Shown piece after piece: positions 17,429 through 19,996 of a DNA stretch of 64,000 nt. The notes below the pieces were generated by a model. The model was not told where the DNA came from. It saw only the letters and a list, made by a program, of their open reading frames with translations, and searched no databases. Origin of the DNA: an uncultured Gammaproteobacteria bacterium (GTDB lineage: Bacteria > Pseudomonadota > Gammaproteobacteria > UBA9214). Each line of letters starts with the position of its first letter. Position 1 is the first letter of the stretch. Both the position numbers and the translations under genes were made by a program. Location: contig CAWHCQ010000035.1 in NCBI GenBank assembly GCA_963827755.1, positions 32,001 through 96,000 on the forward strand, read 5' to 3'.

Positions 17429-18190
17429 ATGAGCACAGCAACAACAATTCCCCCGGGCTGGACCGCCACCCCCGGCTTGTTAAAAGACCGGGCAATACTG
17501 GTTACCGGTGCCGCCAACGGCATTGGCCGTGCACTGGGTACAGCCCTTGCCGCACACGGTGCAGCGACCATTCTGCTGGACAAGGATGTCCATGGCCTCG
17601 AACAGGCCTACGATGAAATAGTTGCCGCCGGCCACCCGGAACCCGCCCTTTACCCGCTTGATCTCAAGGGTGCCTTGCCCGGCGACTACGCCGATCTCGC
17701 CGCAATCCTGGAAAGAGAATACCAGGGCCTGGATGGACTGGTTCACAATGCCGCCCAGCTGGGTGCACTGGTACCGCTTGCCAATTTTGATGACGAGATG
17801 TGGTTCGAGACACTGCAGGTCAACCTCAATGCCCCCTACCTGCTGACCCTGGCCTGCCTCGAGCTGATGAACAGGCGCGCAGATGCATCAATCATATTCA
17901 GCTCCGATGCCAGCGGACGCCACGGCAAGGCCTACTGGGGTGCCTACGGGGTCTCCAAGGCGGGGCTCGAGGGACTCATGCAGATACTCGCCGATGAGCT
18001 GGAAACCAATTCCCCGGTGCGTGTCAACAGCATCGATCCGGGACCGGTGCGCACGGCAATGAGAAGCCTGGCCTACCCGGGAGAGGATGCGGCTGCGCTG
18101 AATGCACCGAAAGATGTTGTTGACCCGTTTCTCTACCTGCTGGGGCCTGATAGCCGGGGAATCAGCGGGCGGCAATATACGGTTACATAA
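17429..18190 (+). CDS. yciK: YciK-family short-chain dehydrogenase
   Basis: TGAANGIG, HNAA, YWGAYGVSK, NSIDPGPVRTAMR. TATAAT at 17412-17417. Confidence 0.87.
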   Translation: MSTATTIPPGWTATPGLLKDRAILVTGAANGIGRALGTALAAHGAATILLDKDVHGLEQAYDEIVAAGHPEPALYPLDLKGALPGDYADLAAILEREYQGLDGLVHNAAQLGALVPLANFDDEMWFETLQVNLNAPYLLTLACLELMNRRADASIIFSSDASGRHGKAYWGAYGVSKAGLEGLMQILADELETNSPVRVNSIDPGPVRTAMRSLAYPGEDAAALNAPKDVVDPFLYLLGPDSRGISGRQYTVT

Positions 18191-18220
18191 ATATACCCTC
18201 TGGTGCTTTCTCCTCCTTCT

Positions 18221-18830
18221 GTTGATGCGCCTTGCAGGCGGGTTTTATTTGGATGCGGGCTCTCGCGCCCGCCGGCGAGGTACTTTTCTTTGCTCCGCCA
18301 AAGAAAACGTATCCAAAAGAAAGGCGACCCGGAGGTGCAGCCCGAATACTCATTTTCAATGAGTATTCGGGTTCCCTGCGCTTCTCGCGAAAACCGGCGC
18401 ATGCGCAACTCGCAATCTCGCTGCGCTCGAAAGCTCAAACAGGGCGCATGCTTCATCCGGTTTTCACTGCGATGCTCGGCTGCGCCTACGGGAGGGGTAG
18501 ATCAACCCCCATACTCGGCGAGTATGGGGGTTTGATCTACCCCTCCCGTAGCACTCACCGAGTACCGCAGCCAATCCGGGGAATAGCCGCGCACCCTGTC
18601 TGAGCTTTCGAGCGCAGCGAGATTGCGAGTTGTGCGCGGCCCCCGGATTGGCGAGGAACGCAGGGGACCGGATTAGGCAAGACAGCGTTGCTGTCTTGCC
18701 TAATACGGTGAGTGCTCCGGGTGCCCTTCTCTTTGGGTACTTTCTCTTGGGCAAGCAAGAGAAAGTACCTCGCCGCGCGGGCGCGAAAGCCCGCATCCAA
18801 ATAAAACCAGCGCCTGCAAGGCGCCCCAAC
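18221..18830. repeat. 610-bp imperfect palindrome made of two inverted, diverged copies of a structured element of about 300 bp
   Basis: Centre at 18518. The arms share GCGCCTTGCAGGCG..GGTTTTATTTGGATGCGGGC, an identical 31-mer and near-identical inner ends. Internal helices covary between copies. Confidence 0.9.
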
Positions 18831-18869
18831 AAAATAGCTACATTTGCAAAATCAAAGAACCGAAATCAG

Positions 18870-19996
18870 CTACTCCATAAGATTGACATGGATCCCCTGC
18901 GCCTCGAGCGCATCTGCACGCGCCGCGATGAAACGCTGGAAACTCGGCTGTTCGCGGTAGGCGGCGGAGGCCACATAATCCATGGCGGACTGCACGTGAA
19001 AGGCCTTCAGGTAGCCCTCTGTTCTGAATACTTCCCTGCCCTGCGCGTCGAAAAAAACCGCCGACGGGGCATACTGGATATTCAACTGCTTCGCCCATTG
19101 CTGCGCACTCGTTGTCCTGCCATCCATGCCTGTCAGCGGGTCCTGTGACCACATATCCAGCAACAGCACATCAAAACGCGCCAGTTGTTCACGACTCTCC
19201 GGACGCTTCAGGATATCGAGGTGCAATTCGTCGCAGGGGGCACACTCCTTTTGCTCGAACAGCACCAGCAGCGGCTTGCCACTCGCAAGCGCCTGCAGGG
19301 AGGTGCCCGGCGGCAGGTGCGCGGGATCCCGGTGCAGCACACCGCTGGCGGGCTGCGGTGCCTTTGCCGCAAGGTATTCGCGAAAGTCAGGATCATGCCC
19401 GTTATACAGGGCCGCATACTCCAGTGCCGCATCGAACCTGTGGGGCGGGTAATATCCATTCGCACGCAACACCACATTACCCTGTTCTTCAAGAAACAGC
19501 AGTGTCGGAGTGAACATGACCCGCAGCGACGCTGCAAATTTTTTCTCGGTCGTCAACTCGCCATCAAATCCGGTCACTTCACGATCGCCCCAGATATTGA
19601 TCGCCACGACCTCGAAATGCTCGCGGGTCATGGTCTCGGTCGCCTTTAGAGAGAAGTTCGTGTCCAGCAGCTTCTTGCAATAGGGACAACCGTCCTGGTA
19701 GAAATACAGCAGCACGCGTTTCCCGGCCGTGGCAGCCTCTGCAACATCTTCGCGTATATCCAGGAATGAATTGGCAAACCAGTCGGGTTTCTCGGCATAA
19801 CCCGGGTTTACCATCCCCTCGGCCAGTACCTCCGCAGAGAGATCTGCCGTTGCAGTCGATCATCCCGGGCTGTTGACGCTGCACATGCTCCGGCCACGGC
19901 AGACGGGCCGGCGTCGGGCTGCGAATCACAGGCGGCAATCAATACCAGCTGCAGCAGCAGGAATACAAGCGGCGCGGGTCTTCCGGTGATAAACAT
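18870..19996 (-). CDS. SoxW-like tandem thioredoxin-fold protein with lipoprotein-type signal (frameshift near 19830-19900)
   Basis: WF..SFLDIRED, CPYC, FTPT, and a second domain with CAPC. The upstream part (19808-19996) has a hydrophobic LIAAC lipobox in another frame. Confidence 0.78.

Follow-up and report, generated by a model that had tools for sequence, protein, structure and literature searches.

Comparative evidence for a predicted pseudoknot-locked triple helix in a divergent repeat related to TwoAYGGAY RNAs

Two copies of a three-tract motif are present in the window (the whole 64-kb stretch of DNA analyzed), and the explanation we favor, as probably though by no means certainly correct, is that each forms a pseudoknot-locked triplex module at the 3′ end of a TwoAYGGAY-related RNA. 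Comparative sequence data support four parts of this model: the hairpin, the helix of the pseudoknot, covariation of three columns in parallel register, and the choice of strand. We infer, in addition, that the base triples form physically and that the folded molecule is RNA rather than single-stranded DNA; its function would most likely be that of a stabilizing or recognition structure at the RNA 3′ end.

General features of the element

The motif copies are carried by an imperfect palindrome located between two convergent genes (identified with Pfam), encoding an SDR protein (17429–18190, plus strand) and a thioredoxin-like protein (18870–19814, minus strand). The two arms of the palindrome (18217–18834) share 75% identity over 647 aligned columns (self-BLAST). 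The parts of the element are listed below; the pyrimidine-rich strand is termed the Y strand.

18217–18834: whole element, 618 bp, imperfect palindrome formed by a divergent doublet of two homologous structured arms (self-BLAST, arm alignment)
18217–18518, minus strand: left arm, read from the centre outward on the Y strand (arm alignment, consensus fold)
18255–18272, minus strand: left terminal GC-rich hairpin P2 (sequence, MFE fold)
18279–18314, minus strand: left hairpin P1, containing the tracts 18300–18307 and 18284–18291 (sequence, MFE fold, covariance model)
18284–18291, 18300–18307 and 18315–18322: tracts of the left copy, TTTTCTTT, AAAGAAAA and AAAAGAAA, respectively
18315–18322, minus strand: left third strand T3′, reading TTTCTTTT on this strand (sequence, covariance model)
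18323–18326, minus strand: left S1a (complement of GGCG), pairing with loop 18296–18299 by only 4 pairs
18341–18371: variable hairpin of the left arm (inverted repeats I20 and I7, arm alignment)
18403–18447: most conserved arm core; its partner, 18591–18635, is 93% complementary
18467–18570: palindrome centre, with perfect 14-nt arms (18504–18517 and 18519–18532) separated by a 1-nt gap (inverted repeats I2 and I21)
18519–18834, plus strand: right arm, read from the centre outward on the Y strand (arm alignment, consensus fold)
18667–18709: variable hairpin of the right arm, 20-bp stem, 95% complementary (inverted-repeat scan)
18722–18726, plus strand: right S1a (TGCCC), 5′ strand of the pseudoknot helix, pairing with loop 18749–18753 (sequence, family covariation)
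18727–18734, 18741–18748 and 18757–18764: tracts of the right copy, TTCTCTTT, TTTCTCTT and AAGAGAAA, respectively
18727–18734, plus strand: right third strand T3′, TTCTCTTT, parallel-complementary to the purine tract 18757–18764; proposed Hoogsteen strand
18735–18748, plus strand: right P1 5′ strand, composed of the extension GGGTAC and the pyrimidine tract TTTCTCTT (inverted repeat I18, MFE fold)
18749–18756, plus strand: right hairpin loop, S1b GGGCA (18749–18753) followed by a 2–3-nt connector
18757–18770, plus strand: right P1 3′ strand, composed of the purine tract AAGAGAAA and the extension GTACCT
18777–18794, plus strand: right terminal GC-rich hairpin P2 (MFE fold)

The consensus fold of the window arms with the Dechloromonas and L103 arms contained 60 predicted pairs, 31 of them with changes on both sides. 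The hairpins at 18341–18371 and 18667–18709 occupy equivalent positions in opposite arms and are unrelated in sequence. The arm core (18403–18447) carries on its Y strand the box GAGCGCAGCGAG, which is present also in a Ralstonia locus (L004). A MITE or insertion-sequence derivative would be expected to show terminal inverted repeats, a duplicated target site and a related parent that carries a transposase. As judged from the arm alignment, the outer ends of the element coincide with the GC hairpins; P2 is not followed by a U run in the window's element, and a variable-sequence hairpin is found at its position in the relatives. The folding energies of a whole arm on the two strands were about equal (−63.6 vs −66.3 kcal/mol).

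No direct repeat flanking the element was seen in the window, none of the four ORFs tested inside the palindrome belonged to a Pfam family, no tRNA or tmRNA gene was detected within the window, and the scan of the window's element for sigma-70-like promoters yielded 0 sites. Rfam analysis of positions 17500–19500 (E≤10) revealed weak microRNA-like matches to plain hairpins, all below the gathering score. No similarity was found between the 651-nt element and phages or between the 491-nt Dechloromonas-type element and plasmids, and 14–15-mers from the arm boxes had no match in literature text; the literature matches of motif 11-mers that were examined were all primers or shRNAs. One site was flagged as a possible intrinsic terminator directed inward, made of the GC hairpin and tract 1. 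This reading was rejected, since the spacer between hairpin and T run is 8–11 nt in the copies inspected, and it leaves tracts 2 and 3 unexplained.

All six tracts that an earlier note on this DNA had described were found at the positions given above. In both arms, tract 2 has tract 1 as its reverse complement and tract 3 as its mirror, exactly over 8 nt. The tracts indeed change together between the copies, as that note had claimed: three positions differ in each tract and the relations remain exact in both arms. The gaps between the 8-nt tracts are 8 and 7 nt in the left copy and 8 and 6 nt in the right one; the first loop shortens to 6 nt if the closing G-C pair is counted as stem. The right P1 is a perfect 14-bp stem and the left one has a one-base bulge (18308) and one mismatch in its extension, so that, with these defects and a 4-bp S1, the left copy is slightly degenerate.

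The window was scanned for any 8-nt pyrimidine tract with its reverse complement 3–12 nt off and its mirror 2–12 nt beyond. This analysis revealed exactly two hairpin-plus-mirror sites in 64 kb, the two copies described here, and no such site in 100 resamples of the window under a first-order Markov model. A search of the 64 kb with a covariance model of the relatives likewise detected only these two units (72 and 65 bits).

Covariation of the three tracts

Relatives were identified by a genome scan in which tracts 1 and 2 were constrained and the third tract was left free, which gave at least 125 loci; the third-tract counts are based on 164 related hairpins among the matches listed. Covariation of P1, S1 and T3′ was analyzed in an alignment (A2) that contains only copies preselected for at most one third-tract mismatch, with 10 of the 164 hairpins dropped.

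Three-column covariation across homologues, the decisive computational check of the triplex reading, was clearly present. The third tract is an exact mirror in 141 of the 164 hairpins among the matches listed and has one mismatch in 13, while a matching third tract is absent from 10; on the control side, at most one mismatch was seen in 3 of 161 cases, none of them exact. In the parallel register, 96.1% of the cells of the four variable columns were complementary (a value inflated by the preselection of A2 for at most one third-tract mismatch), with 143 double-change cells. Slid registers gave at most 24 double changes and 0 of 500 shuffles scored as high (A2), whereas the antiparallel alternative gave 0 double changes in A2, below all shuffles. 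The earlier interpretation of the hairpin plus mirror repeat as a triplex is thus supported by homologue covariation.

At least six tract types were distinguished (68, 42, 21, 5, 1 and 1 copies), each keeping all three relations. Two of them (G at positions 4 and 6; G at position 6) fall outside the search pattern and were met only as unconditioned partner copies. One type found among the relatives is asymmetric, AAGAAAAA being accompanied by AAAAAGAA. Such asymmetric types, together with the antiparallel pair count, rule out a reading of tract 3 as a direct repeat or as part of an alternative Watson-Crick hairpin. Long-range pairing of tract 3 with the other arm was rejected as well: the arm types differ in the window and in 17 of the 25 divergent pairs listed (L081 and L082 being one place fetched twice), and single units exist, at 32 loci with at least 800 nt of room among the matches listed. 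Neighboring C+.G-C triples are unfavorable; adjacent C residues occurred in no tract among the matches listed, though the search pattern permitted CC, and this absence fits such a rule.

Even copies with 100% identity across the remaining 35 core columns can be of different tract type (e.g. the arms of L069 and those of L050), and 91 sequence pairs among the matches listed combine at least 90% identity elsewhere with different types. At least 45 type changes among 137 units were needed on a tree (a noisy one) constructed from the flanks only. The independent coordinated changes may number near six or seven, i.e. the number of types, rather than 45, since the tracts lie within approximately 41 nt and recombination or gene conversion can move the whole set. 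Two otherwise near-identical arms of a Paraburkholderia locus (L048) differ by a single triple (T3′ position 6, tract 1 position 3, purine tract position 6), a difference suggestive of a recent, compensated change.

The hairpin, the pseudoknot helix and the linker

In 141 relatives, 96.4% of the P1 cells were paired, with both-side changes at 11 of the 14 pairs (A2). The pseudoknot helix S1 showed both-side changes at 4 of its 5 pairs (A2); for both helices, 0 of 500 shuffles scored as high. The complementarity between the loop and the flank that forms S1 amounted to a mean of 4.54 contiguous Watson-Crick pairs (154 copies), compared to 2.50 in 200 shuffles (maximum 2.73). The predicted arrangement has the crossing topology of an H-type pseudoknot, both helices of which are supported by covariation. 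The pairing S1 between the hairpin loop and the flank of the third tract was observed beyond what the earlier note had described, and the same holds for the extended stem, which fixes the length of the linker.

The linker is 6 nt long in 136 of 154 copies among the matches listed. In an ideal A-form helix, the estimated cross-groove P-P distance is approximately 10 Å at an offset of 5–6 bp. The joints are tight: connector L3 has 2–3 nt for a 4–5-bp S1, and 0–1 nt joins the third strand to P1. By the ideal-helix estimate alone, the path of the third strand may be sterically feasible.

An outer helix between GGGG (5′ of S1a) and CCCC (after P2) was seen by eye in some subfamilies, inconsistently. 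In the RNAalifold structure of 8 arms, GGG pairs instead with an invariant CCC near the arm 5′ end, by three pairs without covariation.

Strand assignment

The preference of the earlier note for the pyrimidine-rich strand, with T/U.A-T/U and C+.G-C triples, fits the asymmetry of G.U and A.C pairs in the stem extension. Read on the purine strand, extension position 2 has 58 A.C vs 1 G.T and position 5 has 93 A.C vs 0 G.T (n=154 for each, among the matches listed). An A.C pair on the purine strand is a G.U pair on the pyrimidine strand (UG 47 plus GU 10 at position 2 and GU 81 at position 5 in A2), which indicates the latter. Two Rfam families agree with this strand. In 5 of the 6 Pseudomonas-type loci scanned, a co-oriented RF01731 match immediately precedes the unit on its 5′ side, and the RF02421 match begins within the purine tract and continues outward along the pyrimidine strand.

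Distribution of related units

The motif of approximately 45 nt is a conserved module in many Beta- and Gammaproteobacteria and in some other phyla. At least 40 motif places per replicon were found in Paraburkholderia, and no match was found in 5,426 E. coli genomes. Laboratory strains such as Pseudomonas fluorescens SBW25 and P. putida are among the carriers of the family. Where two units of a related locus are neighbors, they are mostly divergent (25 of 30 such pairs among the matches listed). That the window's element is a divergent doublet of a widespread structured-RNA family is an observation that the earlier note did not contain.

All-against-all BLASTP of 1,078 ORFs from 125 loci among the matches listed revealed 0 families of recurrent neighbor proteins; the only large clusters of these flanking ORFs consisted of spurious ORFs on the repeat itself. 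Genes for a transposase, a RAYT or a reverse transcriptase are thus not found beside these copies. With a crude ORF heuristic, the outer-side gene faced into the unit in 29 cases vs 16 otherwise (among the matches listed). The proposed RNA would thus often be antisense to its neighbor and would need its own promoter.

Comparison with known elements

Extended TwoAYGGAY RNAs of Pseudomonadota (RF01731) are described in the text of a recent preprint as having a 3′ pseudoknot, additional hairpins and a long basal stem (Li et al., bioRxiv 10.64898/2026.09.22.753630, 24 Sep 2026), and their function and means of spread are presented there as open questions. Two properties are shared with the elements studied here: (i) divergent doublets, which make up 68.4% in Li et al. 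2026 and 25 of 30 adjacent pairs here (among the matches listed), and (ii) copy-number variation, which in both resembles that of mobile elements. A 3′ pseudoknot (S1) and extra hairpins are present here, and S1 may correspond to the pseudoknot of the preprint. Moreover, 5 of 6 Pseudomonas/Stutzerimonas-type loci scanned have an RF01731 match that adjoins the 5′ side of the proposed triplex unit in the same orientation, and the window arms align with RF01731-bearing arms in their 3′ half. A TwoAYGGAY RNA proper has two hairpins that share a stem and end in AYGGAY loops. The window arms differ in that AYGGAY is absent from the Y strand of either arm, with no RF01731 match at E≤10 in 17500–19500, and in that the AYGGAY domain is replaced by other hairpins. 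The alignments indicate that the window palindrome is related to the extended TwoAYGGAY RNAs. The words “triplex” and “Hoogsteen” have 0 occurrences in the main text of Li et al. 2026.

Bp1_684 (RF02421) is a Burkholderia sRNA candidate predicted by SIPHT and given as detected by RT-PCR, with no strand-specificity stated in the passages concerned (Khoo et al. 2012, PMC3521395). The candidate and the outer end of the element described here overlap: the Paraburkholderia locus L047 gave matches of 44.8 bits (criterion, at least 44 bits) and 33.5 bits, which run from the purine tract to the GC hairpin, and the original locus of the candidate given in that source, pdhB-lpdA, is the intergenic place of a B. 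cepacia copy (L002). The RF02421 model differs in comprising the last hairpin bases and approximately 100 nt of flank, without tract 1, the third tract or the pseudoknot, and it had no match in the window (Rfam, 17500–19500, E≤10).

The intrastrand triplex motif of Hoyne and Holder consists of a pyrimidine block, a complementary purine block and a third block mirroring the purine block, as presented in the main text of Holder et al. 2015 (PMC4666352). Both window copies contain this three-block arrangement, which is exact in 141 of 164 relatives (among the matches listed). The ITxF search rule given in the same text specifies 1–6-nt loops between the blocks (Holder et al. 2015, PMC4666352). 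With the BoxC/PIT/TMECO repeats, as described there, the motif shares three consecutive homopurine/homopyrimidine blocks, a hairpin with a mirror-like third block and occurrence in many proteobacterial genomes; that scheme would place the purine strand in “class II” and the complementary strand in “class IV”. TMECO itself, which the same source examined as DNA, is a G/C-rich motif abundant in E. coli, its stems being 9 nt and its second loop 3 nt long (PMC4666352), whereas the motif described here is A/T-rich with one or two isolated G/C layers and has an extended stem, a pseudoknot helix and a pyrimidine strand. Membership in TMECO/BoxC was rejected on account of the A/T-rich tracts and the lack of any motif match in the 5,426 E. 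coli genomes; the present tracts were not found in the main text of Holder et al. 2015 (PMC4666352).

The predicted topology (S1a, L1, S2a, S1b, L3, S2b) is that of H-type pseudoknots with a major-groove triplex, in which a pyrimidine-rich L1 occupies the deep groove of S2, runs parallel to its purine strand and forms U.A-U layers. The L1 pyrimidines here match the purine strand of S2 in parallel register (96.1% in the preselected A2; 141 of 164 exact among those listed). The triplexes of riboswitch and telomerase pseudoknots have few layers; those predicted here would differ in having eight contiguous ones, movable C+.G-C layers and an S2 of 14–15 bp, with no evident ligand or template role and with tens of copies per genome.

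ENE/MALAT1-type structures contain a long U.A-U-rich triplex with interspersed C+.G-C, for which protection of the RNA 3′ end has been proposed, and the predicted triplex shares this composition. In ENEs a U-rich internal loop clamps a downstream A-rich tail, whereas the present motif would fold as a pseudoknot with its two pyrimidine strands side by side, and further stem plus a GC hairpin come after the A-rich strand. Membership in the ENE type was rejected, since both pyrimidine tracts are adjacent on one side of the hairpin and there is no U-rich internal loop.

Proposed structure and alternative explanations

Each copy is proposed to be the 3′-terminal module of a structured non-coding element on the pyrimidine-rich strand, directed outward from the palindrome centre. 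Along this strand S1a (4–5 nt) would be followed by the 8-nt pyrimidine T3′, the 14–15-bp hairpin P1 and the GC hairpin P2; in P1, the inner 8 bp would be formed by the pyrimidine tract paired to the purine tract, and the loop would carry S1b. Pairing of S1a with S1b would produce an H-type pseudoknot and lead T3′ along the deep groove of P1 in the same direction as the purine strand, where U would be placed over each A-U pair and C over each G-C pair to give eight U.A-U or C+.G-C layers. Past the eighth layer, the strand would cross the remaining 5–6 bp of groove with zero or one linker base, which would account for the near-invariant linker length. Such a module could serve as a compact cap resistant to nucleases or helicases, or as a recognition knob, at the 3′ end of a mobile-element-like RNA.

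The same fold could be adopted by single-stranded DNA, as an intrastrand triplex of the pyrimidine (class IV) or purine (class II) strand that would arise transiently in replication, transcription or transposition and act as a polymerase obstacle, a recombination hotspot or a site for a mobilizing enzyme, like BoxC/PIT/TMECO. T.A-T and C+.G-C triples form in DNA too, G-rich motifs of the known kind accompany the present motif in an Aeromonas locus (L003), neither strand of the arms folds clearly better than the other, neighboring genes often read into the purine strand, and the family acts like a mobile repeat, with 40 or more places per Paraburkholderia replicon and with mostly inverted doublets. 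A hairpin plus mirror tract is, furthermore, how the intrastrand triplex motif is defined in the main text of Holder et al. 2015 (PMC4666352). We nevertheless consider this explanation unlikely, as G.T wobbles, typical of RNA and costly in DNA, are present at two stem positions in 40–60% of the copies, two Rfam RNA families are co-oriented with the pyrimidine strand, the fixed 6-nt linker suits the narrow deep groove of an A-form helix, and neither a transposase nor a recurrent protein was found beside the copies (125 loci, among the matches listed). For the purine strand in particular, an A-rich purine-motif triplex would be weak, and the strand asymmetry argues against it.

The hairpin and S1 could also be real with no triplex at all, the third tract being a pyrimidine-rich linker or a protein/Hfq-type site whose match to the other tracts reflects block inheritance of a few ancestral variants spread by recombination. 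This is consistent with the small number of distinct tract types (only six or seven among the matches listed), with the proximity of the tracts, which would be inherited as a block, with the 10 of 164 listed hairpins that have no matching third tract, and with a chimeric hairpin (L104) in which tract 1 and tract 2 are of different types and the third tract is missing. Each type, however, needed matched changes in all three tracts, in a mirror relation (parallel complement) that no protein site or copying mechanism we can name would yield; mixed combinations are rare, suggesting selection against them, the change between the L048 arms has the appearance of a compensated one, and the fixed linker and the absence of adjacent C would be left unexplained. 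The absence of a triplex therefore appears quite improbable. Hardly any weight is given to H-DNA in the double helix, which negative supercoiling would induce in the mirror repeat made of the third tract, a 6-nt spacer and tract 1. These two tracts do mirror each other perfectly across a short spacer, and H-DNA is named as a known consequence of mirror repeats in the main text of Holder et al. 2015 (PMC4666352); but H-DNA needs two tracts only and leaves the hairpin tract, S1, the covarying stem extension and the strand asymmetry unexplained. Eight layers are also very short for H-DNA.

Significance

To our knowledge, long natural triple helices are rare, and those of bacteria are mainly found within riboswitch pseudoknots, with two to four layers. 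The sequence rule presented here is simple and has the support of more than 150 natural copies and at least six tract variants; it predicts a module of approximately 60 nt with eight contiguous layers. A bolder proposal, which we put forward tentatively and hold somewhat short of an even chance, is that a pH-tunable, eight-layer U.A-U/C+.G-C triplex locked by a pseudoknot caps the 3′ end in a mobile-element-like RNA family, one that has spread through Beta- and Gammaproteobacteria and reached other phyla. No longer natural triplex would then be known from bacteria, and the structure would be a bacterial counterpart of the eukaryotic and viral ENE/MALAT1 stability elements, with C+ layers that hop from place to place between copies while the three strands stay in step.

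The pseudoknot-locked triplex module provides a structural handle on the enigmatic multi-copy TwoAYGGAY-type elements, a family that is now linked to the Burkholderia sRNA candidate Bp1_684; both are tied, with the strand clearly assigned, to the earlier idea that bacterial genomes contain intrastrand triplex repeats. Three earlier, separate descriptions (TwoAYGGAY, Bp1_684 and intrastrand triplex repeats) are thereby added to. The movable C+.G-C layers, if real, would offer a natural series for pH dependence, and approximately 60 nt is a convenient size for melting experiments, NMR, crystallography and compensatory triple mutants. Should RNA 3′ ends be protected by the triplex, the module would be a compact, portable stabilizer.

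Mirrored tracts in the arms of a palindrome

The earlier note had described two copies of a unit with three 8-nt purine/pyrimidine tracts that change together between the copies. A sequence check found all six tracts in place, and showed that the "copies" are the two arms of a single imperfect palindrome (75% arm-to-arm identity over 647 columns), which occupies the gap between two convergent genes:

17429-18190, plus strand: short-chain dehydrogenase gene
18217-18834: 618-bp imperfect palindrome
18284-91, plus strand: left copy, TTTTCTTT
18300-07, plus strand: left copy, AAAGAAAA
18315-22, plus strand: left copy, AAAAGAAA
18727-34, plus strand: right copy, TTCTCTTT
18741-48, plus strand: right copy, TTTCTCTT
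18757-64, plus strand: right copy, AAGAGAAA
18870-19814, minus strand: thioredoxin-like gene

The joint change and the mirror symmetry both held: three positions per tract differ between the arms, and within either arm tract 2 is matched exactly, by tract 1 as reverse complement and by tract 3 as mirror. A window-wide scan for an 8-nt pyrimidine tract with a nearby complement and mirror returned these two known sites only, and no site in 100 Markov resamples of the window.

At the junction of the arms is a perfect inverted repeat whose 14-nt halves are separated by 1 nt (centre 18504-18532, within 18467-18570). The doublets of Dechloromonas and of L103 (a locus from another genome) have, at their centre, a spacer that is variable and partly A/T-rich; as pure speculation, snap-back or hairpin-primed copying of one arm would leave a centre with no spacer. 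Perfect or near-perfect hairpins at equivalent arm positions (18341-18371, 14-bp stem; 18667-18709, 20-bp stem) are unrelated in sequence, a structure retained while its sequence was exchanged, and Pseudomonas-type arms have another hairpin at this place. Either outer edge of the palindrome has an inward-pointing terminator-like hairpin with a T-run (18228-18250, plus; 18825-18800, minus); the two are homologous, with one for each convergent flanking gene.

Covariation of the third tract with its hairpin

Every A/T-rich hairpin in the window and in the loci carrying related units whose two tracts were complementary with at most one mismatch was collected (164 hairpins, two counted twice because loci L081 and L082 overlap), and a mirror of the purine tract was sought 2-16 nt beyond each side. 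On the best side, the mirror was exact in 141 of the 164 cases (one mismatch in 13, two or more in 10); the other side, used as a control (n=161), gave no exact mirror, 3 with one mismatch and 158 with two or more. Third tracts vary in step with the type of their hairpin.

Tract types (purine tract; third tract; copies). The last two types lie outside the search pattern and were met solely as unconditioned partner copies.
AAAGAAAA; AAAAGAAA; 68
AAAAGAAA; AAAGAAAA; 42
AAGAGAAA; AAAGAGAA; 21
AAGAAAAA; AAAAAGAA; 5
AAAGAGAA; AAGAGAAA; 1
AAAAAGAA; AAGAAAAA; 1

The common types are nearly symmetric, so that a mirror and a shifted direct repeat are not distinguishable there; the asymmetric types, all of them mirrors, rule out the direct-repeat reading. 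An alignment was made of 141 distinct cores, chosen beforehand for a third tract with no more than one mismatch (10 hairpins dropped). Its four variable third-tract columns match the purine tract by parallel complementarity in 96.1% of cells, with 143 double-change cells versus at most 24 when the register was slid, and none of 500 shuffles was as high. Antiparallel pairing of these tracts gave no double change and a score below every shuffle. The three-column covariation that the earlier note had proposed to look for in homologs is thus present. Adjacent G/C positions, though allowed by the search pattern, occur in no tract.

In L014 (Dyella japonica, minus strand), a small extra hairpin lies between stem and third tract, just 3′ of the hairpin at 1201-1228; AAAAGAAA is still found ~25 nt downstream, and the 2-16-nt search scored this copy as having no third tract. 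The hairpin in L104 (301-328) is chimeric: its tract 1 is of one type, the tract 2 opposite is of another, and a third tract is missing after it. Its appearance suggests recombination between copies that differ in type.

Different, self-consistent tract sets occur in copies identical at all 35 other core columns (the arms of L069 and of L050, L028 versus L061, L020 versus L098), and 91 sequence pairs with at least 90% identity elsewhere differ in type. Differing arm types with other core positions identical or nearly so were also seen in L044, L103, L127 and others. Either the tracts evolve far more rapidly than the sequence around them, or they are exchanged as blocks. In Paraburkholderia (L048), sibling arms differ by one layer, altered in all three tracts. 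The two ends are of different type in 17 of the 25 divergent pairs listed, and a flank-only tree of 137 units requires at least 45 type changes, compared to 58-64 for shuffled labels. As they span ~41 nt, the three tracts could be transferred as whole sets by recombination between copies, and the safe lower bound of events is therefore the number of types; even so, each type must have come about through matching changes at equivalent positions in all three tracts.

A pseudoknot on the pyrimidine strand

The earlier note had overlooked a pseudoknot helix, an extension of the hairpin and the length of the linker. Bases in the 3′ part of the hairpin loop can form Watson-Crick pairs with the 4-6 nt adjoining the third tract:

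18749-53 (GGGCA) with 18722-26 (TGCCC): right copy
18296-99 with 18323-26: left copy, four pairs

Contiguous loop/flank complementarity averages 4.54 across 154 copies, compared to 2.50 in 200 shuffles (maximum 2.73), and 4 of the 5 pairs show changes on both sides. The hairpin (P1) continues for 5-6 more pairs past the tract with clear covariation; overall it is 96.4% paired, with both-sided changes at 11 of 14 pairs. Purine tract and third tract are joined by a 6-nt linker in 136 of 154 copies.

The preference for the pyrimidine-rich strand, already expressed in the earlier note, fits two kinds of evidence. Within the stem extension, A.C mismatches on the purine-rich strand are G.U pairs on the pyrimidine-rich strand, and the purine strand shows 58 A.C versus 1 G.T at extension position 2 and 93 versus 0 at position 5 (n=154). 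Two Rfam families, RF02421 (Bp1_684) and RF01731 (TwoAYGGAY RNA), are both co-oriented with the pyrimidine strand. The RF02421 matches in L047 begin inside the purine tract and run outward (44.8 and 33.5 bits), while RF01731 lies directly 5′ of the unit in five of six Pseudomonas/Stutzerimonas-type loci (61.5, 42.8, 40.5, 37.9 and 32.4 bits; gathering score 43). In the sixth (L029), a 40-bit match (535-598, minus) lies ~530 nt away on the strand opposite to the unit (1131-1191, plus); it may be a remnant of a partner arm, and a profile search of this locus found no second unit. Whole-arm folding showed no preference for either strand.

The order on the pyrimidine strand would be S1a, T3′ (the third tract), the P1 5′ strand, loop strand S1b, a 2-3-nt connector, the P1 3′ (purine) strand and the terminal GC hairpin P2. 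This would give an H-type pseudoknot whose loop 1, T3′, lies along the purine strand of P1 in parallel orientation within the deep groove, as Hoogsteen layers of the U.A-U and C+.G-C kind require. The worry that the stem extension leaves the third strand no loop in which to turn is met by the A-form groove distance: in an ideal-helix calculation, which relies on general helix parameters and a polarity rule, the two backbones flanking the deep groove come nearest each other (~10 Å) at a 5-6 bp offset, so that eight layers and a 5-6-bp extension joined by 0-1 nt would be what the fold needs. The same geometry would account for the invariant linker length. We infer such an eight-layer fold from this model, for which the connector across S1 is short. 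A class II (purine-strand) version would have to be DNA. The intramolecular triplex predicted in the earlier note is supported by strong comparative evidence from sequence, and the prediction is now widened by the pseudoknot helix and the strand assignment.

Distribution and relationship to known elements

BLAST matches of the window's intergenic region in plasmid and chromid records were confined to ~50 nt around the tracts (80-90% identity), in unannotated intergenic DNA of Pasteurella, Aeromonas, Burkholderia, Ralstonia, Pseudoalteromonas and others, with at least 40 places in each of the Paraburkholderia replicons. No match was found in 5,426 E. coli genomes or in the phages searched. A species-representative genome collection was scanned with a single pattern, in which only the hairpin flanks were fixed and any pyrimidine or purine was allowed at the three central positions of tracts 1 and 2, yielding at least 125 stretches. 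Among the matches listed, hosts are mostly Gamma- and Betaproteobacteria (Dyella, Rudaea, Luteimonas, Stenotrophomonas, Xanthomonas, Pseudomonas, Stutzerimonas, Aeromonas, Rheinheimera, Methylobacter, Paraburkholderia, Variovorax, Polaromonas, Rhodoferax, Thiobacillus, Dechloromonas and Methylotenera); some contigs are labelled Selenomonadales/Quinella, Clostridia, Bacteroidota or others, several being metagenome bins with possible contamination. Loci L024, L025, L026, L040, L042, L105 and L106 (Selenomonadales/Quinella and similar) keep the pseudoknot and third tract with a linker 1 base shorter, and share a CCGCGAGG box directly 5′ of S1a; the upstream domains joined to the module seem to vary from phylum to phylum.

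Full-length homologues of the window's arms occur in Dechloromonas and one other locus, and the consensus fold of eight arms has 60 pairs, with both-sided changes at 31. A profile search identified 169 full units; 44 loci have two or more units, 32 a single unit with at least 800 nt of room, and 47 allow neither call. Adjacent pairs are divergent, with third tracts inward, in 25 of 30 cases. No recurrent protein family was found beside the copies.

For the "extended" TwoAYGGAY RNAs of Pseudomonadota, the main text of a preprint (Li et al., 24 September 2026, 10.64898/2026.09.22.753630) reports 68.4% divergent doublets and large copy-number variation, and suggests a Csr/Rsm-sponge role and mobile-element-like spread; this main text contains neither "triplex" nor "Hoogsteen". 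The window's arms have their 3′ half in common with these RNAs but lack the AYGGAY motif and an RF01731 match, and the element is therefore considered a relative of the extended architecture rather than a member of RF01731. Going by that main text, the element family and its 3′ pseudoknot are already, if recently, known. The intrastrand triplex repeats BoxC/PIT/TMECO are G/C-rich DNA motifs according to the main text of Holder et al. (2015, PMC4666352), which does not mention the window's tracts. As far as the searchable main texts go, a triplex of eight layers in which the C+.G-C layers can shift position seems to be new.

The 3-kb stretch of Aeromonas caviae (L003) that carries an A/T-rich unit also has two G-rich motifs of the BoxC/TMECO kind, each a hairpin plus a third tract (~40-80 and 1295-1335). 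Bp1_684, a Burkholderia sRNA candidate, is the outer flank of the element (L047, 1656-1767, plus, and 1110-1208, minus; L002, 1501-1559); the B. cepacia copy at aceF-lpdA is the counterpart of its original locus, pdhB-lpdA.

Possible function

The function is the weakest part of our account. A role in single-stranded DNA, as proposed for BoxC-type repeats, is a serious rival to one in RNA, and several observations count against the latter: the window's element has no promoter-like site and no U-run after P2; by a crude ORF heuristic (29 versus 16), the neighbouring gene on the outer side would often read into the purine strand; and the one piece of expression evidence found for the element is the detection of Bp1_684 by RT-PCR, reported in the main text of Khoo et al. 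(2012, PMC3521395). The unit is located at the outer (3′) end of each arm, with the GC hairpin, then the element boundary and nothing more beyond it, and on account of this position a compact 3′-terminal cap or recognition knob on an RNA is favoured.
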